Source: an uncultured Acidobacteriota bacterium (GTDB lineage: Bacteria; Acidobacteriota; Terriglobia; UBA7540). From it: a DNA stretch of 64,000 nt. Positions 3,751 through 23,474 of this stretch are shown here, piece after piece. The notes under the pieces were generated by a model. It had not been told where the DNA came from. It ran no database searches and saw nothing but the letters and a program-made list of their open reading frames with translations. The DNA is taken from positions 416,001-480,000 of the forward strand of contig CAWDSK010000001.1 of the NCBI GenBank assembly GCA_963804995.1, given 5' to 3'. The translations under genes were made by a program, and so were the position numbers. Numbering within the stretch: the stretch's first letter is position 1; each line of letters starts with the position of its first letter.

Positions 3751-4224
3751 TGCGATTGGGCGATTGACGAGCTTCCATCCGTTGAGTTTGGTTCAGGTTC
3801 GCGTCCCAATCAGCCGATTACCGTAGCGGAGAAGTGTGGCGGGGGATGGCAGTCGGCTTGTGGATTGGACTATCGGTCCATCAGCACAAGGCGAAAATTC
3901 ATAGCCCTCTCCGAGGGGAGAGGGTGGCGCGCTGCCGGCGTACTCACCAACCGGAGCGCGGCGGGTGAGGGGTCACTTCGCGCCTATCGCCCCGACTGCC
4001 CATGGGGCTCATGTTCCGTCGTAAACCCACCGATAAGCGATGTGGGGAAGTGCGGCACAGCGCGGATTGGTTCATTGATTCATCGGGTCATTGAATCATT
4101 GAGTGATCGGGTGATTTGTGATTTGCGATTTGTGGTCTGCGATTGGGCGATTGACGGCTTCAATCCGTTGAGTTTGGTTCAGGTTCGCGTCCCGTCCTGC
4201 CGATAACCGTAGCGGGATAGTGTG
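3751..4224. repeat. About 88-bp imperfect direct repeats (3751-3838, 4138-4224) flanking a REP-like palindrome
   Basis: Both copies contain tgcgattgggcgattgacg..cttc.atccgttgagtttggttcaggttcgcgtccc...ccgat.accgtagcgg. Confidence 0.85.
3900..3978 (+). repeat. REP-like dispersed palindrome (ccctctcc..ggagaggg family), copy 1
   Basis: catagccctctccgaggggagagggtgg...gggtgaggggtcactt; homologous reverse-oriented copy at 57719-57800. Confidence 0.8.
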
Positions 4225-5041
4225 TCAAGGCCGGCGAAGTCGGTCGGTGTTCTCATCCCGCAATTTGGTTCCCTCGTCACTCGTCACTTGTCACTGGTCA
4301 CTGCTTTTGAAGTGTGTCACACGGGGGCAGGGGGATCGGGGTTAGGGATTTGGGCCTTTGGATTAACTGTTAGCTGTCGGCTGTGAGCTGTCAGCACGGA
4401 GACTTGTGTCACGGGCGAGGCTGGACGGATGTCGACTCGGCTGGGAAGCGGGCGCAGCGCCCCTCTGCATCGCGGCGATTCGTCCCCCATCGGCAACAAA
4501 AAGCCGCGGACCTAGGCGACCGGTCCGCGCGACGATTGCTTATTAGGGGAACTGCAACCACACGACGAGCGATTTAATCGCTATGGCGGTGGTGCAAAGT
4601 ATTGGAAGCCACCAGAGCTCGGAATCGGTTACCTTGGTTTTTTGCATTTGCGCATCCGGAAACGGGTCGAGGTCCTCTGGCTCCCGCGCTGTCCCCAAGT
4701 TCCTGATAAGATGCTCCCTTTTCTCCAGACACTGCCTACTGCATCACGGACAGTGCACTTCTGTCCGTGGGCTTTTCTCAGGCCCGATACCCCAGCGGCA
4801 ACCGCACGCCGTCAATCTGGATGGGCATGGCGCTACGGCCGGGAGTATGAAGTTGCTAACCCCGGAGTGATTCACTGCCGATGGGGTTTTGGGCAGCCAC
4901 ACCCTACCGTCAAGTCGTCCGGCTCCGGCGGGACGTCTGGAACAGGGCGTCGCAGAAGCGTCGGGTCAGCCGTAAACACCCCGGACGCGACCACTCGCAC
5001 CATGGCAATAACTTTATGGCAGCGCCTCAGGCCTCCTGGCA

Positions 5042-6439
5042 TTACTCGTAGGTCTCGCAGTTACACCACTTGCCTTCTTCATCGTAATGGGGCCAGGGAC
5101 CGCCCGTGCGGAATCCGGAAACAATGGGATCGTCATACAGGGGCGTAGGCGCGAAGTAACCGGGCCTCCGCAGGTGCGCTTTCACCACCTCATCGTTGAG
5201 TTCAAGGCCGAGTCCAGGCTTCTCCGGAACCGTCACGAAGCCATCCTTGATAATCGGCTTGGGAACGCCGGTCACCAGGTCCTGCCACCACGGCATATCC
5301 AGGGCATGGTTCTCCATGGCCAGGAAGTTGTCTCCGAACGTGGCGGCGCAATGGTATCCCGCGAAGCCGCCGATGGGCGATCCGGCGTGGTGCATGGCCA
5401 CCTGGATGCCCGCCATCTCGGCATAGTCGGCAATTTTCTTGGTCTCCAACAGCCCGCCGGAGGTTTCAATGTCGGGATGAATCACTGCCACCGCGTGGTT
5501 ATCGATCAGCGGCCGGAAACCCTCTTCCAGTCCGAAAATGTCTTCGCCGGTATTGATAGGAGTGGTGGTGGATTCGCTGATTTGCTTGTAACCGCGCCAG
5601 TTTTGCCAGAACCACTGATGGCCTTCCTGGGCCTGCAGGATATCCTCCGCCCAGGCAAGCTGGTATTTCTCGAAGGCCCGGGCGTAGCGGATGGAATCCT
5701 GGATGTTGAGCGGCCCGAAGTGGTCGGCGGCGAGCGGGGCCGACCAGCCGATCACGTCACGGATGGCGGCAATGAATTCGCACAGGTAGCCCAGGCCCTT
5801 GTCGGTGGCCACCCCGCGATCGTTGACGGCGCCCGGCCGGTCCTTCACCAGGTCCGTTTCCAGATCCATCTTGAAGAAGGTCACACCCATCGCCTGGCGC
5901 TTGCGCATGCGTTCCGCGTACGTCTTGACATCCGGGTGAGCGGTGGTATCCGCATAGATGCGAATGCGGTCGTGTTTCTTTCCGCCGATCAGCCGATAGG
6001 CCGGAACGCCTAACACTTTCCCGGCAATATCGTGCAGGGCCATATCTACCGCGCTATACCCTCCGCCCATACGTCCGTGCCCGGCAAAGGGGCGAACCGT
6101 TGCCAGGTTGCCCTCAATGTCCAGAGGGTTCTTCCCCAGCAGGTGCGCCTTGAGGATCAGAGCGATACCTTCCACCCCCGCGTCGCGCACTTCCCCCAGT
6201 CCGTAAACATCCTGGTTGGTGTAAATTTTGATGAGCGGATAGTCATAATTCGCGGCCACCCGGCAGGCGCGCATGTCCGTAATCTTCAGCCCGCTCGGAG
6301 CGGAGTTCCGATTCACCGTTTCCTGCGCGCTCACCGATCCCTGGGTCGCCTGGAACAAGGGACCCCACAGGGCCGCCGCGGCGGCGCTGCGCAGCAGCGA
6401 CCGGCGGGTCATCCTTGCCTTCTCACGATTGCTAACCAT
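5042..6439 (-). CDS. Mandelate racemase/muconate lactonizing enzyme (enolase superfamily) with Tat signal
   Basis: TRRSLL Tat motif; SAVDMALHDIAGK, FFKMDL, ADHFG, WAED, TGED metal-ligand motifs. Confidence 0.9.
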   Translation of the reverse strand: MVSNREKARMTRRSLLRSAAAAALWGPLFQATQGSVSAQETVNRNSAPSGLKITDMRACRVAANYDYPLIKIYTNQDVYGLGEVRDAGVEGIALILKAHLLGKNPLDIEGNLATVRPFAGHGRMGGGYSAVDMALHDIAGKVLGVPAYRLIGGKKHDRIRIYADTTAHPDVKTYAERMRKRQAMGVTFFKMDLETDLVKDRPGAVNDRGVATDKGLGYLCEFIAAIRDVIGWSAPLAADHFGPLNIQDSIRYARAFEKYQLAWAEDILQAQEGHQWFWQNWRGYKQISESTTTPINTGEDIFGLEEGFRPLIDNHAVAVIHPDIETSGGLLETKKIADYAEMAGIQVAMHHAGSPIGGFAGYHCAATFGDNFLAMENHALDMPWWQDLVTGVPKPIIKDGFVTVPEKPGLGLELNDEVVKAHLRRPGYFAPTPLYDDPIVSGFRTGGPWPHYDEEGKWCNCETYE

Positions 6440-6717
6440 ATTCTCCTCCTAGGGGTCGTGTCCCAGCGGGTAGCCACGCTGTCGCCGCGGCTGAAAGTCC
6501 GCCGATCTTAATGGCGGGCGACCTGTCCTGGCGATGGGATTTTCTCACGCCCGATGCCCCAGCGGCAACGCACATCATCAATCTCGATGGGACACCCCGC
6601 CCCAGTTGCCATGCCCAAGGCAGAATCGTTGTAACTCGACCGCCGCCAGAAGAACCCACGGTCAGAAAATCACTGACCGTGGCTACCCCGCTGCCTCGGG
6701 GATATCGGGTATGAGAA

Positions 6718-6933
6718 CTAAGCACGACTAGAATGCCCGGCACTATGGATAACTTGAACCCTGCCGACTTTACCGCTCTGCAGCCTTACCTTGATCCCGT
6801 GCGGGTGGAACGGGGACGTCGTGAGAAGGTCCTGGACGATGCCTCGGGTCTGTTTCCCTGTGGGCTGGTCCTCTTTGAGGACAACTGAAACGTCTGCTCC
6901 ACGCGCCACGTCACTTCGGTTCCGTCCATCCAT
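6718..6933 (-). CDS. YwbE family (DUF2196) small protein
   Basis: MDGRNR..VVLKEDQPTGKQTRGIVQDLLT.SPFHPHGIKVRL.SGKVGRV matches the YwbE pattern. Confidence 0.88.
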   Translation of the reverse strand: MDGRNRSDVARGADVSVVLKEDQPTGKQTRGIVQDLLTTSPFHPHGIKVRLQSGKVGRVQVIHSAGHSSRA

Positions 6934-7072
6934 GGAACTTACCCCCTTCAGACCCTCGTCAAAAACTTCATGCGGGCTACATATCACAATAATCCATGGG
7001 GATAACAAAATCATCCCGGCCTCGGGGCAATCGGTCTACATGGCAGTGCAGCTTCCAGGATGCCTTTCACGG

Positions 7073-7668
7073 TCAGAAGAGGTATTTCAATGCGAACTGA
7101 ACCAGACGAGGGGCGACCGAGGTTTGGGTGATCACACCGAAGTTTGCCGTCCCCAGCGACGTGCCGGGATTCGCGAACTGGGGATGGTTGAGGGAGTTGT
7201 AGAATTCGACGCGAAACGCCAGCTCGGCGTTTTCCCGCAGGCCTCCCACCACAGTTCTCTTTCCCAACGATATATCGGTATTAACCTGTGGCGGCCCGTC
7301 CAGGAGGCTCTGGCCGGCGTTGCCGTACCCCGTTGCGCCATCGGAACCGATCGCGGGCGCAGCGCAGATGGCTGACGTATTGATCCAGCCGCCGAGTCTC
7401 GCTTCCACGCTGCCGGAGGTGGCCAGGGCCGCCCGACCCGGGCAGAGCGTTACGGTTGAGGGCGAAGCCTCACCGTAGACGCTGCCTCCGGCCGGATCGG
7501 TCGGGGTCAGCGGCAATCCGCTTTGCACGATAACCAACCCGGTTGTAGTCCACCCGTTCAACAGTTTCCCCGCCGCGCCCGTGCTGTGGACGGAATTGGG
7601 GAACTGGTAATCGAAGTTGGTAACGATCCGGTGCGTGCGGTCAAAGGACGCGCGCGCCCAATTCCTAG
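7073..7668 (-). pseudogene. TonB-dependent receptor, C-terminal part separated by IS1634
   Basis: RASFDRTHR...FRVEFYNSLNHPQF...FGVITQTSVAPRLVQFALKYLF; joins in frame to the 9684-12676 part once the IS is removed. Confidence 0.9.
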
Positions 7669-13463: not shown

Positions 13464-13614
13464 TCGCTGGTCCCCTCAACATGCCGACATGGCACCACCT
13501 CAACCACTACATGCGCTCCAGTGTATGCGCCGCTCGGGGTGGTCACAAACTGTGACCACCTGTTTCGTGAAGTGCCGTTCCCTAACCCCTAATCCCGAGC
13601 CCCTAACCCCGATC

Positions 13615-13833
13615 TCACCACTCATCGCGCAGCTTTCTCTGCTCTGCGAGGGCGTCACCCTCCCACTGAAGCTTTCCTACCACATCAGCGAAATTGTATT
13701 TGGACCCGTTGGGCTTTGGCGTGCTGCCCACCACCAGGACGAGTTCCACGGCGCCAGCCGGGAGTTCCACCGGCACATCCAGCCGCAACCGCCCGTCCGG
13801 CCCCACCTCACCTTTAGTCTTCACGACCTGCAT
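13615..13833 (-). CDS. Small hypothetical protein, antitoxin-like (orphan)
   Basis: 72 aa ending DALAEQRKLRDEW, typical of PIN-associated antitoxins; flanked by CCCTAA-type heptamer repeats. Confidence 0.55.
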   Translation of the reverse strand: MQVVKTKGEVGPDGRLRLDVPVELPAGAVELVLVVGSTPKPNGSKYNFADVVGKLQWEGDALAEQRKLRDEW

Positions 13834-14293
13834 AGGACGCCCTCCCCGCGCGCGCCAACGGACTCACGCTTGGATTGAGTGTACCACGGGGCCCGGGAAG
13901 TCTATAGTTGACAGTCGAAAGTTGAAAGTCAAGCCGCGCCCTAACCACGAGCCCACCGGGAATGGGATTCGCCCTGTCCACTGCCCCAGTCCCCAGCACC
14001 TCTCCTTCCCGAACCCCTAATCCCGAATCCCTATTCCCTGTATTTCCCATGCTATGAATGTGGATACGCGATGAAGAGCCGCACCGGAACGCAAAATGCG
14101 CGTACCTGTGCGTTACCAACTGCAAGGCATTAGAAAGACTCCCCTCCTGGATCAGGAGGGGTGGCGCGCCGAGCGCCGGGGTGGTCGATCAGAAGAAGGA
14201 GCCTACCGCGTTACCTACTTGCCGGTTGACCGCGAGGGCTGCCTTTCTTGTGTTTAACTATCCACTGACCACTGACAACTAACCACTGCCGTT

Positions 14294-14919: not shown

Positions 14920-15993
14920 TCAGCCCTTCGCCATCGCGATTCGGCTCCGCGCCAGCCGGACCGCTTCGTGCAGTTTGCGCTCTAATTCCTTCTTCGGCAA
15001 CAACTCTGTCCAGTAGCTGGCCACGTGAATACCGCTCTTTTCGAGTTCCAGCAGGGCGACGTGCTCCGTACTCTTGCCGGCGCAAAGGATCATTCCCAAC
15101 GGTGCAGCCTCCTGTGGTTCCGCCGCGTACCGTTTCAGCCACCCCAGGTAGAGTTCCATCTGCCCTTTGTCCGCGGCTTCAAACTGCCCGATTTTCAATT
15201 CGATGGCGATCAGGCGACAGAGCTTGCGGTGATAGAAAAGCAGGTCGAGGTGGTAGTCACGGTCGTCAATCTGCATGCGCAACTGGCGGGCTACAAAGCA
15301 GAACCCCACCCCCAGCTCCAAGATGAACGACTCCATCTCCCGCAGAATGGCCGACTCCAAATCCTTCTCCGCATAGGTATCTTTCAACCCCAGAAAATCG
15401 AGGACGTAGGGATCGCGGAAGACCAGGTCGGGTGTGAGCTTGTATTCGTCACGCAACTCCCTAAGCTCACGGCGGATCAGTTTGTCCGGCTTTTTGGAAA
15501 GCGCCGTGCGCTCGTAAAGCATCGACTGGATTTTCTGCTGGAGGGTACGTGTGCTCCAGTTCTCCACCCGGCACATTTCGGTGTAGAAATCCCGCTTGAG
15601 ATGATCCTGAATAGGAATGAGCCGCAGGAAGTGGGTCCAGCCCAATTGTCGTAGCAGCGATACGACAATTTCCCGGTCCGGGTAGGCCTCCGCGAACTGG
15701 ATCATCCGGCGCAGGTTCTTCTCGCCGAATCCCCGGCCGAAATCCCTCTCCAATTGTGCACTCAGTGCGGACACAATCTGTTCGCCATACTCCGCGCGTT
15801 TTTCCTTTAGGATGTCTTGCCGGATGCGCTGCCCCACATGCCAGTAAAGCGTGGTTAGCGCCGCGTCTACCGCGCGGGCGGCGCCTTGGCGGGCTTCTGC
15901 AATCAGTTCCCGCACGTCGGCCAGCAACGCCGCGAGCCCTTGGGGGCGTAAAGCCAGGGCCTTCTTTCTCCCGGGCGGTTTTCGTCCTATCAT
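14920..15993 (-). CDS. YhcG/DUF1016 family PDDEXK nuclease
   Basis: YWHVG, NLRRMIQFA, LGWTHF, RDPYVLDFL, FILELGVGFCFVARQ, DLLFYHRKL..IELK, GQMELYL. Confidence 0.93.
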   Translation of the reverse strand: MIGRKPPGRKKALALRPQGLAALLADVRELIAEARQGAARAVDAALTTLYWHVGQRIRQDILKEKRAEYGEQIVSALSAQLERDFGRGFGEKNLRRMIQFAEAYPDREIVVSLLRQLGWTHFLRLIPIQDHLKRDFYTEMCRVENWSTRTLQQKIQSMLYERTALSKKPDKLIRRELRELRDEYKLTPDLVFRDPYVLDFLGLKDTYAEKDLESAILREMESFILELGVGFCFVARQLRMQIDDRDYHLDLLFYHRKLCRLIAIELKIGQFEAADKGQMELYLGWLKRYAAEPQEAAPLGMILCAGKSTEHVALLELEKSGIHVASYWTELLPKKELERKLHEAVRLARSRIAMAKG

Positions 15994-16563: not shown

Positions 16564-17088
16564 CTATTTCGACCATTTGAAGGCTAGGACGGTGATCGCC
16601 CAAGGCAATATGGCAAACATCATTGCGGTATAGGCACGCTTCAAGTACTTAAACTTATTATTGATGATCTCTGAATTTCGGTGGCATTGCTCCAAGAGAT
16701 CTTGCAAATGCTGATCAGTCGTTCGGCATGACCAGCACTGACTGAATTCGTTAAACGAGTTGCCAGCGATCGACCCGAAAAACAATAACGATTTAGACGG
16801 ACCTCTGGTGCGTGGGTAGTTGGCGCAGTGAATAAAGGTGAAGCCGGTCGCTAGCATACCTATGGTCGTCGCGAAGGCAACGACCGCCCACCACCTCCAT
16901 TTTTCGGGCTCTGGTGCAAGTGACACTGCAACTCCTAGCATTCCAGTGTGCATTCCCAAGACAACCGAAATTTTGGTGTCCACTTTGCTACCCCACTGAA
17001 GCACTCTATCGAGGTTTTTCTCAGCGTACGCGATCTGTTCGCTCAGGGGCCATCCGGCAACGACTTCGGCATGTACATTATTTTTCAT
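16564..17088 (-). CDS. Pycsar-type transmembrane effector (PycTM/DUF5706-like)
   Basis: W..KVDTK followed by TM helices, YPRT..SLLFFGSIA, DLLEQ..NSEII..KFKYLKRA plus a C-terminal TM. Confidence 0.82.
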   Translation of the reverse strand: MKNNVHAEVVAGWPLSEQIAYAEKNLDRVLQWGSKVDTKISVVLGMHTGMLGVAVSLAPEPEKWRWWAVVAFATTIGMLATGFTFIHCANYPRTRGPSKSLLFFGSIAGNSFNEFSQCWSCRTTDQHLQDLLEQCHRNSEIINNKFKYLKRAYTAMMFAILPWAITVLAFKWSK

Positions 17089-17117
17089 AAGACCAAACTG
17101 ATAGAGCAGTGGGTTTG

Positions 17118-17621
17118 CTAGTCCAATTCTGCGATTCGCTGTCTGAACAATTCCACGAGCTCGTCTGAAATCCAAGCGCCCGCGCGGATCATTTCTTCTA
17201 AGATTCTGATTCCATCGTTCCCCGTAATTTCCCCAATCTCAATTGCGTATTCCAGCACTCCGATTGCGCCGGCGACCGGAATTCCAAATTCCTCCGCGCA
17301 ATTCCGAGCCAGCTTGTCGTTTGTCAAAACAGCGGCCCCTCTAGACCATGCCACCACAATGGCACCAGATTCACCGAGCCCCAGTCCGGGTCTGCCCTCA
17401 CGCAAACGTTGAAATCTCTCCCAGTCCTCCTCGCTGACCAGAGCTACCACCTCCGCACTTGGCATAGCTATGGAAGCACGATCGAGCTCATCTTGCACGA
17501 AGTCGGAAACCAAGAGACGCCCACTAAAAACTCGCTCGAGTGTGTCGAGCGAGCCGGAACGCTGAAAGTCCACGACAACGCTTGAGTCAAGCGACACGCG
17601 GGTTATGCTAAGCCGGTGCAA
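17118..17621 (-). CDS. PIN-domain nuclease (DUF3368-like)
   Basis: LDSSVVVDF, V.DEL, LGLGESGAI, VLTNDKLAR, GAIGVL; TTG start overlapping the upstream stop is inferred. Confidence 0.82.
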   Translation of the reverse strand: MHRLSITRVSLDSSVVVDFQRSGSLDTLERVFSGRLLVSDFVQDELDRASIAMPSAEVVALVSEEDWERFQRLREGRPGLGLGESGAIVVAWSRGAAVLTNDKLARNCAEEFGIPVAGAIGVLEYAIEIGEITGNDGIRILEEMIRAGAWISDELVELFRQRIAELD

Positions 17622-18738
17622 AATCCGTTTCCCTTCTCCATTCCTGGGTCTTAGCCCGCGCTTCGCTGACATTTACGCTAAGTAGTTCGGCGAGTTTTCC
17701 GAGGGACACCATACTGTTGAGAGCGGCCTTTCTCGCGAGATGCGCGAAGCGGCTTGACCTCTCCCAAGCTTCGATCATCGTCTCGTCGAGCGGTACAAAC
17801 TCCTTTCTAGGATCGCTCTGTCGCTTTTCCACCTCCTCCATTAGTCGCCGCTGGTCATCGTCTGAGATTAAGCGGAGGTCCCGAACTCTGCGCAACATCA
17901 TCTGCGCACTGACTTGGAAATATTGCTTCAAGAAAACTATGTCTTCCAAGCCAACGGTCTTGTCCCCAACGTCCCGATGTAAAACGTCTCGAAGTCCCAC
18001 TTCCGGAACTAGAAACGAAGCCGCGAAACAGTCTGCCATCTTCTCGGGCACACTGTCCTTTGGTAGACCGCCGGTCGGTGCGGCACTGCTATACATAGGC
18101 CGATGCATCAGCAGGTGTCCGCATTCGTGCGCTAATGAGAAGACTTGGCGCTCTACCGTGTTGGCGCTGTTGACTAAGATACAGAGACCATAGTTAGAAG
18201 AGTACGCGGATAACGCAAAAACCTCATCTCCCTCCATCTTGTGCCGTAAGATCCTGACCCCCTGCTCATCGAGCAACTTAAAGATGTTTTCAATCGGATC
18301 ACGCTGGCCGAGTCCTAGGCGTTCACGCTCAGAAAGTGCAACTTGGACCGCGTAATCGAACGGCTTCGAATGCGCCCCGGGTCCGCCAGAGTAGTCGGGA
18401 AGCTGGAGTAGATTTTCGGCTCCGACAATTTCCTCTAGCTCACGATACGCTTTGGAATGCCTTTCAAATGATAAGCGGGCGTTCCCGGGAGCGGTCGCCT
18501 CCGCGACAGCCCGGTACAATAACGCCATAGTATCTTGGTCCCCTCTGAAAAAATCAGCGACCGGACAACCAAGAAGGCGAGAAGCTACCAGCAACTTGCT
18601 GCTGTCGATGGCCGTATGACCATTCTCGATGGCGCTGACCGTGGCCCGGGAGAGTCCGATTTTAGCGGCAAACTCCTCTTGGGATAGACCCGCTAACTCC
18701 CTTGCTCTCTTTAGATTTCGTGCGATGATCTCTTTCAA
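17608..18738 (-). CDS. XRE-family HTH fused to ImmA/IrrE (DUF955) Zn-metallopeptidase
   Basis: NLKRARELAGLSQEEFA..SRATVSAIENG HTH; RQVFSLAHECGH (HExxH); EKMADCFAASFLVP; TTG start after GGAGGG (alternative ATG at 18768). Confidence 0.93.
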   Translation of the reverse strand: MKEIIARNLKRARELAGLSQEEFAAKIGLSRATVSAIENGHTAIDSSKLLVASRLLGCPVADFFRGDQDTMALLYRAVAEATAPGNARLSFERHSKAYRELEEIVGAENLLQLPDYSGGPGAHSKPFDYAVQVALSERERLGLGQRDPIENIFKLLDEQGVRILRHKMEGDEVFALSAYSSNYGLCILVNSANTVERQVFSLAHECGHLLMHRPMYSSAAPTGGLPKDSVPEKMADCFAASFLVPEVGLRDVLHRDVGDKTVGLEDIVFLKQYFQVSAQMMLRRVRDLRLISDDDQRRLMEEVEKRQSDPRKEFVPLDETMIEAWERSSRFAHLARKAALNSMVSLGKLAELLSVNVSEARAKTQEWRRETDFAPA

Positions 18739-18760
18739 TTTCCCTCCAGTGTATAAAATC

Positions 18761-18798
18761 CTTGACATATAATTGATCTACTTGTTGTGATTGTCAAG
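18761..18798. promoter_or_regulatory. Divergent promoter region with inverted CTTGACA...TGTCAAG
   Basis: cttgaca at 18761-18767 and tgtcaag at 18792-18798 in an AT-rich spacer; AGGAG RBS before 18823. Confidence 0.6.
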
Positions 18799-18822
18799 TT
18801 AATTCGACATTAGGAGTATCTT

Positions 18823-20367
18823 ATGTCTTGGAACTTTGATCGAAGCAAGAAACGAGTCGAGGCAGAAGCGAAGCGCCTAGCGCATGCGGGCATCAGCGTC
18901 AAGCCCCTCACCCGCGAAATGGACTTAACCAACCTCTCTCCCACAGAAGCTAGGCAAGTTAACGGCGTCCATCTCTATTCAAACGTGGAGAATCTGGAAG
19001 AACTGCTAACGTCCGAGGCCCTTCGAAAGAATAATTTCAGGGCATTGCACAGATTCTTTCAAGTCTTCAGGAGTGAACAGCGCCGCATCATTCAAAACGT
19101 CTTCGAAGGGGACAAGATCCAAGTTCAGGGCCCAAAGTTTCACGGGCTAATTTTCAAGCCTTATGGGAAGGACTCTGAGATCGCTTGGCGCTCCATTCTC
19201 TGCTCAAGTGCTTTACACCTTTTAGCGGTAAGGGCGCTTCCCGAGGTGTTTCCGGGATACCCACCGATCGTCTCTGCTGCAGGTCTAGAGCTGGGAAAAA
19301 CCGTCGTAGCAAACATCGGGATGCGGGGCGAGAGAGAGCTCATCAGCGTTGGTCGACCAGCAAATTACGCAGCTAAGATTTTCGATAAAGACGCGCCAAT
19401 CACCGTCGGCGAGAACCTCTACTCAACGCTCACGAAGGACCGGCAGTCCTTATTCGGGGCAGCCGAAGGGGTTTATCGGCTAGACCAGTCAGCCGTTGAT
19501 TCCCTAGGGGACGTGCTTCGGGACGAGGGATTCTCCTGGAGTGTCGAATCGTCCGTTAGGCGCCTCAGCCGTGAGATTGAGGTGCTTCCACTTGACAACA
19601 TCTTGGTGGAGGAAGCCCGTGAGAAAATCAATCTCGAAAGGCTCGGGCCGAAGCGCGCAAAGGTTTGCGTGGGCGCAACAGTATTTGTGGACATTGACGG
19701 CTACACCCGATTTGTCGATTCCCTGTTGGACGATGTCGACAAACTTGGGAAGGCTGTTCAGTTGCTGCATCTATTCCGCTATGAGTGGCGCGAAGTAACC
19801 GAGAATGATTTCGACGCGATCGAAATTCAGCATCAAGGGGACCGCTTGCAAGCATTGTTGCACGTACCTACGGATGACGAAGAACTAATGATGGAGAGGG
19901 CTGTTGATTTAGCCATCAGCTACAACTCTTCGGTCGATGAGGTTTTGAGTAAACACTGCGAGAAAGACCGGGCACTGCGTGTGGCGATTGGCTGTGATAT
20001 CGGTAAGGCGTTGGTGTCGAGAATTGGCGTACGGGGTGATCTAGACGCGACATGCCTCGGTAGGTCGGCACTGCGTGCAGAGATTTTGCAGGTTGGATCT
20101 AAGAGTGGCGAGATTTCGATAACCGAGAAGCTTCGCCACGCAATCAGCGAGCAGTCCATCTCAGAGTTATTCAAATACTGTGAGTCGACCGATGCATACG
20201 TAGCAAAGGACGTTACCTGGACAACAATTGAAGACGCGGAGCACGTCCGAGCGTATAAGTCCAGGTCTGCTGCGGTCGTAACGGGGGCCGGTGCAATTGC
20301 GTTCAGGGTCCCAGCGGAGGCGACGGACCGGCCACTCAAGATCACGCGTCCGTGGTCCGATTTATGA
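18823..20367 (+). CDS. Class III nucleotidyl cyclase with two tandem cyclase domains (PycC-like)
   Basis: Domain 2 has VFVDIDGYT and QHQGD; domain 1 has LYSNVEN, QVQGP and SVGRPANYAAK. Confidence 0.85.
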   Translation: MSWNFDRSKKRVEAEAKRLAHAGISVKPLTREMDLTNLSPTEARQVNGVHLYSNVENLEELLTSEALRKNNFRALHRFFQVFRSEQRRIIQNVFEGDKIQVQGPKFHGLIFKPYGKDSEIAWRSILCSSALHLLAVRALPEVFPGYPPIVSAAGLELGKTVVANIGMRGERELISVGRPANYAAKIFDKDAPITVGENLYSTLTKDRQSLFGAAEGVYRLDQSAVDSLGDVLRDEGFSWSVESSVRRLSREIEVLPLDNILVEEAREKINLERLGPKRAKVCVGATVFVDIDGYTRFVDSLLDDVDKLGKAVQLLHLFRYEWREVTENDFDAIEIQHQGDRLQALLHVPTDDEELMMERAVDLAISYNSSVDEVLSKHCEKDRALRVAIGCDIGKALVSRIGVRGDLDATCLGRSALRAEILQVGSKSGEISITEKLRHAISEQSISELFKYCESTDAYVAKDVTWTTIEDAEHVRAYKSRSAAVVTGAGAIAFRVPAEATDRPLKITRPWSDL

Positions 20368-21035
20368 ATGTGCTTCCATGGTACAGAATCTCGCGTCATC
20401 GGCTTGAATCCGAACGCACCCTGCTGCGTAGCCTTCGATACTTCATTCCTGAAAGGCAGTACTTCGACACTCTAAAAAGACTAAACGTTGTTGGCATACT
20501 CATTTACTCTCGAATGCGTTCCGGCAGGGTCGAGCGGTTTCGGGTCCGCATAGAATACCCCGCTAGGTTTCCAAACTTTCCACAGCAGGTCTATGATCAT
20601 GACAAGGTGTTTCAGCCTGGGCACGAGGGCCACTTGCCCGACCACCGCCTCTGTCTGACCCTCCCCGAACGGCGAGAGTTTTCGACTGGTACCGAAGGGC
20701 TAACTGAAGAGGTTTTGGGCGCATCCTTAATCTGGCTTGATAAGCGTCTTATATTCGAGCGAAATGGTGGTAAATGGCCTGGGCTTGACGAGCGCCACGG
20801 CCTCTTTGCGAAAATCGATTTTATACTTGAGGCGACGGGTCTTTCGGAGGATGGACGGGCACGGAGCTGGATGGAGGACACTCTCGCGGCTGCGGCGGCG
20901 AGACGCGGGTTCGATATCGAATTGTATTCGCCGTGTCCGTGCGGCAGCGGCGAGAAAATGAAGTTCTGCCATTTCGACGGGTTCCGTCCCCTGATTAAAT
21001 TACTTCGAGAAGTCTCTCGTCAGGCGAATGGCTAG
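20364..21035 (+). CDS. Prokaryotic E2/UBC-like fold protein with C-terminal SEC-C motif
   Basis: FRVRIEYPARFP..P.V..H...DHRLCL; SPCPCGSGEKMKFCH; ATGA overlap with the cyclase stop. Confidence 0.65.
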   Translation: MNVLPWYRISRHRLESERTLLRSLRYFIPERQYFDTLKRLNVVGILIYSRMRSGRVERFRVRIEYPARFPNFPQQVYDHDKVFQPGHEGHLPDHRLCLTLPERREFSTGTEGLTEEVLGASLIWLDKRLIFERNGGKWPGLDERHGLFAKIDFILEATGLSEDGRARSWMEDTLAAAAARRGFDIELYSPCPCGSGEKMKFCHFDGFRPLIKLLREVSRQANG

Positions 21036-21973
21036 GGCGACTGGAAACTGTGGCGCTGGCGGTGCCATGTGAGAGATTCTCGGTCGGGCAAGTAATGCTG
21101 GTTTAGTGGGCGGAGAATTGACTTACCCGCACGTGGCTTCAGGAGATGCGCTGCATCTCCACGTTCATCAAAGCGATCCTCTGCCACGAGTATTGTGTAA
21201 TCGTTGCTGATCGACCAAAACCCGTGATCGAAAAGCCAGTGGGCTGTTTTTGAAAGCGCGATGCCATTCGTGGGGTGGTTGCTGCCACCTTGAGTGAGCT
21301 GATGGATGTGGGCGGCGTCTAGGGCCGTCTTGCCGTTCAGCGCGATCATCCGGTATTGGGTTAGGGCACAGGTGTAATCGTATGCCGGAAGCACGCGCAC
21401 TGCGAACTTCGCATCCCGTTGACTCTCGGTCTCGTGCCGCGGCATAAAGCGGGTGGCATCCGCTCCAATTACGTCATCGGGAGGAACTGGGAGATCGACA
21501 AGACTGTAAAGCTCCGCCCTTTCTTCCGGCCGAAAATATTTTGCGATCAGAGTACGCCGGGCCAGCGAACGAAACTCCCCCCACCCCAGACAAACGAGAA
21601 AAGATACGTCCAACTGGGCGATTACAGCCGCGTGCCGATCGGGAGCGGGCCGCCCTGCAGCATCAAGCGCTTGCCAGAAGCCTTCAGACTTGAGGTGATA
21701 AAAAGGGAAGTTTATATCAGGCTTGGTCTTCCTGCGGGGCGCTACTACTCGCCAATAGGAGCTGTAGCGGAAAGCCAGATCACCATCTTTTCTGAGAAGC
21801 GCGCCGTCGAGTTTGCCTTGTTCCACAATATCGCAGACGACGAGAAGCAAAAGGGGTTTCTGCGGCGCGTCCCCGAGCGCCGGATGTGCTTTGTCTGGTC
21901 GCAGAGAATTCAGCCGCTCAAGCCAACGCGTCCATTCGGGGGATGAGGTTGAGAGGAGAGCACCCGTGGCCAT
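21032..21973 (-). CDS. SBD-HNH endonuclease (phosphorothioate-dependent restriction enzyme-like)
   Basis: APQKPLLLL and FPFYHLKSEGFW sulfur-binding-domain-like motifs; CALT..LDAAHI..NGIALSKTAHWLFD HNH domain. Confidence 0.8.
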   Translation of the reverse strand: MATGALLSTSSPEWTRWLERLNSLRPDKAHPALGDAPQKPLLLLVVCDIVEQGKLDGALLRKDGDLAFRYSSYWRVVAPRRKTKPDINFPFYHLKSEGFWQALDAAGRPAPDRHAAVIAQLDVSFLVCLGWGEFRSLARRTLIAKYFRPEERAELYSLVDLPVPPDDVIGADATRFMPRHETESQRDAKFAVRVLPAYDYTCALTQYRMIALNGKTALDAAHIHQLTQGGSNHPTNGIALSKTAHWLFDHGFWSISNDYTILVAEDRFDERGDAAHLLKPRAGKSILRPLNQHYLPDRESLTWHRQRHSFQSP

Positions 21974-22908: not shown

Positions 22909-23217
22909 CTAGAGCCCCTGGGTCAATATCCCTGCTACATCACGGCTGCCGTGCAAAATGGTGACCACTTGCAAGGGCTTGGTTTCAGGCCGGTAGACGA
23001 TCAGGTAGGAGTACACAGAAAAGAAGCGCACATTGGCAGAGGTCAAATCATGCCGCCAGTGGCCCGCGCCGGGGAAACTGGCCAGGTAGACACACTTGGT
23101 TCGAATGACGGATTCAACACGGTCGGCTGCTTCGAGGCTGACTTGCTGCTTGACGTAACGCCAGATATCCACCAGGTCACGGGCAGCCTGAGGGGCCAGG
23201 ACATATCGCGCGGTCAT
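22909..23217 (-). CDS. RelE/ParE family toxin
   Basis: YVLAPQAARDLVDIWRY..LASFPGAGH.R.DL..YLIVYR..VTILHGSRDV. Confidence 0.9.
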   Translation of the reverse strand: MTARYVLAPQAARDLVDIWRYVKQQVSLEAADRVESVIRTKCVYLASFPGAGHWRHDLTSANVRFFSVYSYLIVYRPETKPLQVVTILHGSRDVAGILTQGL

Positions 23218-23474
23218 TCCGGTTGAGCTTTCAGTCGATCGAGGTGCTCGTCCAGTTGGTCCTCGGGAATCCCTTCCCCCCGATCAAGTTCTCCGATTCC
23301 GGTTTGGATCTTGGCGTCCACGGCTTGGCGATTGGCCATTAACCATTCATCCCGCTCATGCAGCACTTCCAGCGCCCTTTCGATTACATCGTCGGGGCTT
23401 TGATAAGCTCCGGAACGCAGGGCCTCCGCGATGCGGTTTTCCTGTTCGGGCTTCAGTTGAATCGTCATGGCCAA
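23214..23474 (-). CDS. ParD-like antitoxin
   Basis: L.PEQE..I...LRSGAYQSPDDVI..AL..L; ATGA overlap with the toxin. Confidence 0.82.
   Translation of the reverse strand: MAMTIQLKPEQENRIAEALRSGAYQSPDDVIERALEVLHERDEWLMANRQAVDAKIQTGIGELDRGEGIPEDQLDEHLDRLKAQPE

Follow-up and report, generated by a model that had tools for sequence, protein, structure and literature searches.

Organization of the five-gene segment

The segment examined here lies at positions 16564-21035 of a 64,000-nucleotide stretch of DNA (the window) from an uncultured Acidobacteriota bacterium (contig CAWDSK010000001.1). Translation of its open reading frames (ORFs) showed five uninterrupted genes in two divergent groups. The minus-strand group comprises, from the middle outwards, a fused regulator made up of an XRE-type helix-turn-helix (HTH) domain and an M78 peptidase, a COG2405-type PIN nuclease and a PycTM effector. 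[quoted passage not shown] All five identities had been proposed from sequence in a first-pass annotation and were upheld by Pfam, PADLOC, NCBIfam and fold matches. The same annotation had described five intact genes of lower GC content among pseudogenes, and this was also borne out: all frames are open, GC content is 0.49-0.56 over 16.5-21 kb against 0.57-0.64 in the flanks, and the flanks contain partial phosphorothioation (dnd) genes.

The cyclase and its E2-like partner

The first plus-strand gene (18823..20367) encodes a two-domain (pseudo-heterodimeric) Pycsar cyclase of 514 amino acids with a conserved C-terminal tail. It matched the PADLOC PycC model PDLC00765 (2.4e-90, residues 1-512), and a profile of its family (32 members) matched the solved 514-amino-acid chain 6yii (residues 2-493, E 1.3e-54); both matches place it in the PycC family that characterizes Pycsar, and no Pfam family was found for it at E 0.01. 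The two halves of the chain are alike: in many loci, tblastn matched the sequence internally at 22-32% identity. Asp290, Asp292 and Asp340, the aspartates of the FxDxDGYT and GD motifs, are invariant in the C-terminal half, as are Asn181 and Lys185, within a GxxANxAAK stretch, in the N-terminal half. Judged against the class III cyclase motifs, these residues presumably form one active site from two unlike halves. The tail contains a conserved T-R-P-W stretch in which Thr508 is invariant, and does not end in glycine.

The second gene (20364..21035, plus strand) overlaps the cyclase stop codon in an ATGA and encodes an E2-like protein of 223 amino acids that combines a ubiquitin-conjugating (UBC) core with a C-terminal SEC-C motif. 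It matched the PADLOC E2 of the type found in CBASS (cyclic oligonucleotide-based antiphage signalling systems) at 6.3e-13, and His90, Cys97 and the CxC...CH motif are invariant in 13 sequences. The family profile matched SecA zinc peptides (E 1.8e-4), confirming SEC-C; in a sequence search of the PDB it retrieved a SEC-C peptide only and no E2. A structural model (mean predicted local distance difference test score, pLDDT, 86.1; predicted TM-score 0.74) was therefore of interest for the UBC core, and Foldseek placed eukaryotic E2 enzymes first among its matches (5hpt_F, E 1.5e-4), with 10 matches at E<=0.001 and target-normalised TM-scores of about 0.5-0.57.

A modelled complex of the cyclase and the E2-like protein scored 0.76, against 0.01 for the best control. 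Of 157 solved complexes, 116 attain the mark that it passed, as do 2 of 215 mismatched pairs; these counts apply only approximately here, because the present model was run with our own alignments. Model runs agreed in at least 90% of contacts, with a partner pLDDT of at least 86. The modelled interface includes cyclase residues 465-493 and tail residues 503-514, and residues 86-100 of the E2-like protein with His90 and Cys97; in the predicted complex the tail of the cyclase lies at the catalytic cysteine of the E2-like protein.

The divergent operon and its fused regulator

The regulator gene (17608..18738, minus strand) encodes an XRE-type HTH domain (HTH_3, 4.6e-16), a zinc peptidase of the M78 type (ImmA/IrrE, CapP-like; Peptidase_M78, 2e-16) and a UPF0175-like tail. 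It is a single fused ORF of 376-386 amino acids, open to 18768, in which the HExxH motif is kept as HECGH (residue 217, counted over the stop-to-stop frame). In PADLOC the RmrA models matched best (2.1e-38), followed by capP (2.5e-17) and capH (5.6e-5), the last two of which substantiate the earlier comparison of this HTH-peptidase with CapH/CapP. The NCBIfam spr1629 repressor/antitoxin family matched at 3.8e-24, below its cut-off. A 393-amino-acid PDB entry (9vzy_A, 'HTH cro/C1-type domain-containing protein') aligns to regulator residues 19-309 (E 3.3e-5), so the structure of a relative of the fused HTH-M78 protein exists. The most likely start codon is TTG at 18738 rather than ATG at 18768, because a related locus (L017) begins with ATG at the corresponding codon, and a GGAGG just before this position is conserved. 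With this start the control region between the two operons is 84 nt long, not 54 nt.

Small ORFs lying just upstream of five distant PIN genes were matched by the regulator profile, in each case via profile positions ~295-380. All three of the upstream ORFs that were tested are proteins with a ribbon-helix-helix and a UPF0175 domain (Pfam UPF0175, 1.5e-9, 1.7e-6 and 1.6e-10). When a profile of seven regulator tails was compared with a profile of five such antitoxins, hhalign gave a probability of 94.3% (E 1e-7, 35 columns) around a common SLGKLAE stretch. According to Matelska 2017 (PMC5499597), COG2405 PINs are the sole partners of UPF0175, and co-transcription of COG2405 with HTH and DUF955 can also occur. 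The tail homology implies that the regulator probably holds the PIN as an antitoxin would. On sequence grounds, regulator and PIN are probably a three-component, toxin-antitoxin-like controller in which the UPF0175-like tail is the PIN-holding part, and the likeness of the regulator's tail to UPF0175 is the new element here.

The PIN-like nuclease of the COG2405/DUF3368 type (17118..17672, minus strand) overlaps the 3' end of the regulator gene by 65 nt. It matched PADLOC PDC-S70 (2.5e-17) and, below the cut-off of 27.3 bits, Pfam DUF3368 (1.2e-4, 22.3 bits); its family profile matched the solved PIN 1o4w (E 0.0016), and Asp29, Glu62, Glu101 and Asp119 are invariant in 13 aligned sequences. 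None of the RmrT models in PADLOC matched, so the regulator-PIN pair is not RosmerTA in the narrow sense. PIN relatives at E<=1e-5 were present in 25 genomes besides the window's own, among 401 of the phylum, at no more than 37% identity, and no cyclase, E2 or PycTM match was found in 29 loci of these distant relatives, for which flanks of only 1.5 kb were available. Close relatives (E<=1e-15) were present in two other genomes (53% and 43% identity) among 401 of the class, the window's genome included; they belong to the loci L108 and L109 discussed below. Among viral contigs, 32 pattern matches yielded no confirmed relative of the PIN, and 69 yielded none of the regulator tail.

The outermost minus-strand gene (16564..17088) encodes PycTM, a three-helix membrane effector, in agreement with the DUF5706/PycTM-like protein that had been proposed. 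It matched Pfam PycTM at 4.3e-14 (53.2 bits against a cut-off of 27.2), the PADLOC 2TM effector at 3.6e-46 and PADLOC PycTM at 3.9e-31, and the three hydrophobic helices are visible in the translation. The frame is open over 16564-17175; homology indicates ATG 17088 as the likely start, 29 nt past the PIN stop codon. Copies at the same position in two of the loci described below (L013 and L049) are 68% and 65% identical. An effector gene adjacent to the cyclase, as is expected of Pycsar, is present 1.7 kb from the cyclase start, and the ORF layout confirmed that it is on the opposite strand, behind the HTH-peptidase and the PIN. No terminator-like site was found between the PIN stop and the PycTM start; the sole nearby minus-strand site (17348..17333) is within the PIN gene. 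Given the 29-nt gap and the lack of a terminator in it, the only effector of the window's Pycsar most likely relies on the regulator transcript.

The two operons are separated by the control region (18739..18822), which contains an inverted repeat consisting of TTGACA (18762-18767), 25 nt and TGTCAA (18793-18798), identified in an alignment of ten loci. A third GACA element (18806-18809) is followed by the AGGAG of the cyclase gene. Among the ten loci, all of which have an HTH-M78 regulator, TTGAC is conserved in all ten, and GTCAA and the third GAC in nine each, with spacers that vary. A promoter-like site on the minus strand (TTGACA/17/AATTAT) was found at 18797..18769, and each half of the repeat reads as the -35 box of one of two putative, fully overlapping divergent promoters.

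Survey of related loci

Scanning with the cyclase alignment yielded the related loci: 11 belong to species genomes, each titled as Acidobacteriota, and 63 to metagenomes. Profiles built from members named by PADLOC were searched against all six-frame ORFs. Of the 75 sources (74 loci and the window), 73 contain the family cyclase; the counts that follow include the window and near-copies. An E2 gene comes immediately after the cyclase in 55 of the 56 loci with a complete 3' end and at least 600 nt downstream (the exception is L002), and PycTM follows the E2 on the same strand in 39 of 48 loci with at least 1400 nt downstream. Where at least 700 nt were available upstream, the divergent HTH-M78 regulator was present in 14 of 52 loci, and separate CapH and CapP genes occupied the same divergent position in two (L008 and L015; capP 8.3e-35 in L015). 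The PIN follows the regulator in all nine loci with at least 2000 nt upstream.

Nine loci have no PycTM after the E2. Five of them have PycTIR in the locus (L002, L009, L019, L056 and L066). The window, L013 and L049 have PycTM behind the PIN, an arrangement found in these three only, and L025 is too short upstream to tell. PycTIR effector genes are behind the PIN in L002 and L016. L013 has the same five genes as the window in another neighbourhood, and the L049 cyclase is split over two frames. The co-occurrence of cyclase homologues with the trio of HTH-peptidase, PIN and effector, on which the first-pass annotation depended, was accordingly found again in L013 and L049. Its proposal that signal synthesis and signal reception are transcribed separately fits the gene layout of these two loci and the window, where the effector is behind regulator and PIN; it is the exception within the family, in which PycTM usually follows the E2. 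A Pycsar-specific five-gene system as the ancestral layout was rejected, since the usual order is cyclase-E2-PycTM and the regulator pair is present in a minority of loci.

A second Pycsar set is located beside cyclase-E2-PycTM in L020, L021/L022, L029, L031/L032, L036, L040, L062, L047/L048, L002 and L011. It is a gene for PycTIR or for a single-domain cyclase, or the two together, which are then adjacent or overlapping; L011 has a second cyclase only. These sets suggest paired cyclic-nucleotide systems. In L003 the immediate upstream neighbour of the cyclase, in the same orientation, is a class II ribonucleotide reductase (4145-7531, barrel domain 3.5e-133), and L004, L009 and L010 have ORFs of comparable size (1108-1119 amino acids) at that spot. 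The reductase was considered as a component and rejected as a housekeeping neighbour; the reductase-sized ORFs probably mark a common insertion site.

The distribution of the regulator was examined on a tree of 35 cyclases. Rows bearing the regulator fall in three well-supported groups, and the regulator label needs 3 changes on the tree, of which strongly supported branches force 1; labels shuffled over the tree needed a mean of 8.1 changes, and no shuffle out of 500 came down to 3, a result that speaks of clustering and not of function, as kin have common labels. A FastTree tree of 12 regulators gave the same three groups, with co-divergence down to ~50% identity. L108 (G529:C52, 2-5981) contains a close regulator-PIN pair; behind it, on that strand, lie a type III methylase gene (2.5e-207) and a type III restriction gene (1.1e-145), and the position of this type III cargo after the PIN parallels that of the window's PycTM.

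Flanking DNA and selection on the cassette

The flanks consist of degraded dnd genes, and the cassette sits between a broken DndA and a broken DndC. Two partial DndA/cysteine desulfurase pieces cover Aminotran_5 positions 198-370 and 146-229 of 371, and partial DndC pieces were also identified. Direct repeats of 112-127 nt with 91-96% identity are duplicated DndA and DndC pieces (14203-14411/16171-16539 and 22576-22813/23521-23764). One repeat pair brackets a YhcG/DUF1016 nuclease gene (14920-15993) and the other a ParE/ParD pair (22909-23474); the dnd genes are disrupted by events that duplicated part of their target. Short repeats of CCCTAAC/CCCGAGC-like heptamers are present at 13578-13624 and 14006-14038, in a region without a convincing gene.

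An HNH gene at 21032-21973 was considered as a sixth member of the cassette and rejected. Its match is to a phosphorothioate-dependent restriction model (1.5e-32, below cut-off), its L049 copy adjoins DndC, and L013 has an unrelated small HNH at this place. The latter (L013 10377-10841) is just after the E2 gene, in the slot that PycTM occupies elsewhere, and encodes 154 amino acids that include an HNH domain (2.9e-6) and a membrane segment of the glycine-zipper type.

When the five genes of the window were compared with those of L013 and L049, the proportion of non-synonymous differences (pN) was 0.15-0.24 against 0.58-0.84 for synonymous differences (pS) in all five. The selection ratios were 0.04-0.16 where the synonymous rate (dS) was computable; two comparisons gave no dS, and synonymous sites are near saturation. 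The cassette is maintained by purifying selection and is not decaying.

Relation to known systems

The chain matched by the cyclase profile, 6yii, is titled 'Transcriptional regulator' in its PDB record and is reportedly PaPycC, the clade A Pycsar cyclase of Pseudomonas aeruginosa described by Tal et al. 2021. Pycsar is characterized by synthesis of cCMP or cUMP upon infection and by protection from phage. The window's cyclase has the same 514-amino-acid length class, two cyclase halves per chain and a PycTM or PycTIR effector. It differs in sequence (~25-30% identity, estimated by eye and not computed) and in that its family almost always has an E2 gene directly downstream.

E2 genes beside Pycsar-type cyclases have been described by comparative genomics as 'Pycsar-like-4', with a predicted preference for ATP in the E2-linked subclade (bioRxiv 10.64898/2026.08.12.744502), and 'Type II Pycsar' is reported to use a fused E2-E1 (PMC11601596). 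Regulation by conjugation has been proposed for E2-associated Pycsar (bioRxiv 10.64898/2026.08.12.744502; PMC11601596). The window shares with these systems a Pycsar-type cyclase that has an E2-like gene beside it, and an effector of the TM or TIR kind. It differs in having an E2 alone, with SEC-C and no E1 or JAB, and in a regulator composed of HTH-M78 and PIN. No PADLOC E1 or JAB match was found among 8 window proteins and 145 proteins of 17 loci, and a few of the E2 proteins themselves weakly match the PADLOC 'E1-E2' model.

In E2-CBASS, as described in PMC12948482 for SmCdnG-SmE2, the C-terminal region of the signalling enzyme recruits a stand-alone E2, and the tail, which uses a terminal glycine, reaches into the catalytic site and becomes covalently linked. 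The window likewise has a stand-alone E2 beside its signalling enzyme, and the modelled C-terminal region and tail of the cyclase touch the E2 near Cys97, but this enzyme is a class III cyclase and not a CD-NTase. The cassette is not a member of E2-CBASS and would, by analogy, at most work like it.

The regulator also has precedents. CapH and CapP are stated to regulate adjacent operons, including Pycsar (Lau et al. 2022, as cited in PMC13373217 and PMC11601596); in that pair, single-stranded DNA activates the protease, which then cleaves the repressor. There, as here, an HTH repressor and an M78-type protease are encoded divergently upstream of an immune operon; these are two genes in CapH/CapP, whereas the window has one fused protein, with a UPF0175-like tail and a PIN that always follows. 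Three-component systems of Xre, COG2856 protease and PIN or RelE were predicted in 2009 (Makarova, PMC2701414) and HTH-M78 with a COG2405 PIN as a three-component toxin-antitoxin in 2017 (Matelska, PMC5499597), and RosmerTA is described as pairing an antitoxin of the Zn-peptidase kind with a toxin whose function is not known (Millman 2022 preprint). The fused Xre-Zn-peptidase with a co-transcribed COG2405/DUF3368 PIN is common to these and the window, but here the unit is joined back-to-back to a Pycsar-E2 operon and has an effector gene after the PIN.

An HTH-M78-PIN pair joined to Pycsar was not found in the Pycsar literature searched, which left most subscription papers outside it, and neither was an effector in the regulator's operon. 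The UPF0175-like tail was not found in the accessible portions of the literature on HTH-COG2856-PIN systems and RosmerTA. The architecture had been put forward as undescribed; the cyclase (6yii), the E2 pairing, CapH/CapP control and the HTH-M78-PIN unit are all known, and it is their combination that was not found in the literature searched. The cassette is a new combination of known modules, the parts being known in kind, and not a new kind of system.

One cassette or independent neighbours

The reading favoured here, at a probability of roughly 0.6, is that the five genes form one co-inherited, integrated, regulator-controlled anti-phage cassette of two joined modules. Several points weigh against it or limit its support. 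The loci surveyed are not independent, as 46 full-length cyclases reduce to 35 clusters at 95% identity, and the window, L049 and L025, which have dnd/HNH neighbours in common, probably represent one locus in related genomes. The cyclase tree is a quick tree and not a careful maximum-likelihood search. The tail link depends on small profiles, of seven and five sequences, and the window's own tail (100 residues) matched no Pfam family at E<=1. Over 16.3-21.3 kb, 2 promoter-like sites were counted, where shuffled sequence gives an expectation of 2.6. With regard to the E2, the cyclase tail lacks the terminal glycine used in E2-CBASS, and the score of the complex may owe something to likeness to solved CdnG-E2 complexes, because the modelled contact mirrors E2-CBASS.

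A further objection concerns the unity of the cassette, since 36 of 52 loci have neither the HTH-M78 regulator nor CapH/CapP, and the Pycsar-E2 core hence does not need a regulator of this kind. It is possible, though well short of even odds, that two independent neighbours are involved: a Pycsar-E2 system and a self-contained three-component toxin-antitoxin or RosmerTA-like unit, with the HTH-M78 protein as antitoxin and the PIN as toxin. Such a unit would regulate itself only and be kept as an addictive or self-defending element, its linkage would be the result of hitch-hiking in an island, and PycTM behind the PIN would be a rearrangement without regulatory meaning. The best PADLOC matches of the regulator are to RmrA and its NCBIfam family is one of repressors/antitoxins; HTH-COG2856 with PIN has been predicted as a stand-alone three-component toxin-antitoxin, and RosmerTA defends alone (Millman 2022 preprint). 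The pair also occurs elsewhere. In L108 it precedes a type III restriction-modification pair, and the divergent side ends with the contig. In L109, where a fragment of a cyclic nucleotide monophosphate (cNMP)-binding protein is nearby and a stop lies inside the PIN, no family cyclase was found in the ~1.2 kb left beyond the regulator. In L059 and L069 the regulator is whole (as is the PIN in L069) beside cyclase homology that stops early, at profile positions 262 (L059 1357-2142) and 137 (L069 8001-8411), with no E2 in the 2.5 kb and 0.9 kb that follow. These occurrences fit an autonomous toxin-antitoxin unit. What they leave unaccounted for is that the pair, with the conserved repeat, takes the same divergent position in three cyclase clades and co-diverges with the cyclase, that L008 and L015 have separate CapH and CapP there in its stead, that PycTM is so close to the PIN with no terminator-like site between, and that the PIN matches no RmrT model. 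Regulator and PIN together read as a portable controller like CapH/CapP that is able to persist alone.

The degraded surroundings raise the further question of whether the genes are a decaying remnant, intact-looking by chance and no longer defensive. The site between the broken DndA and DndC, the duplicated fragments, the inserted ParDE pair and the L049 cyclase in two frames would agree with this. It is nonetheless very improbable: the five frames are open with their catalytic residues kept, non-synonymous change is far below synonymous change in every gene, and L013 has the same five genes amid different neighbours.

Proposed mechanism and implications

If the five genes are one integrated cassette, the first module would be an E2-type Pycsar. 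Its two-domain cyclase would fold on itself into a single active site and make a cyclic mononucleotide that opens the three-helix PycTM, and the infected cell would die. The E2-like protein would bind the cyclase via the conserved C-terminal region, with the tail at its catalytic cysteine, and may tune the activity of the cyclase, like the stand-alone E2 of E2-CBASS. The second module would be the controller, a CapH/CapP-type fusion of XRE repressor and M78 protease. It would bind the inverted repeat in the 84-nt region and repress both overlapping promoters, and its UPF0175-like tail would hold the COG2405 PIN nuclease in the manner of an antitoxin and its toxin. A putative stress or infection signal would cause the protease to cut the regulator, so that transcription of both operons rises and the PIN is possibly freed. 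In the lineage of the window the PycTM gene would have moved from behind the E2 to behind the PIN, which would place the effector on the controller's transcript.

A more specific proposal, speculative and on balance doubtful, is a three-in-one switch, in which one self-cut, triggered by infection or damage, derepresses the cyclase-E2 operon and the PIN-PycTM operon and also releases the PIN as a second effector that is independent of the cyclic nucleotide. The first-pass annotation had suggested the PIN as a possible second effector, a proposal to which the UPF0175-like tail gives more substance. If this were so, the cell could abort infection even when a phage destroys the Pycsar signal, and the means by which the long-predicted HTH-M78-PIN three-component systems restrain their toxin would be accounted for.

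How suicide-type immune systems stay silent and then fire is an open question, and the cassette is a compact natural case of it: a fused, CapH/CapP-like repressor-protease with an antitoxin-like tail would sit on a conserved putative operator between signal-making and signal-receiving genes. No part is new in kind, so what gives the cassette its value is how the parts are combined, together with the tail homology. These raise the ideas that HTH-M78-PIN units may control neighbouring defence cargo and not only act as toxin-antitoxin pairs, that the UPF0175-like tail may be a PIN-holding element, and that an E2 without an E1 may regulate a class III cyclase via its tail, as in E2-CBASS.

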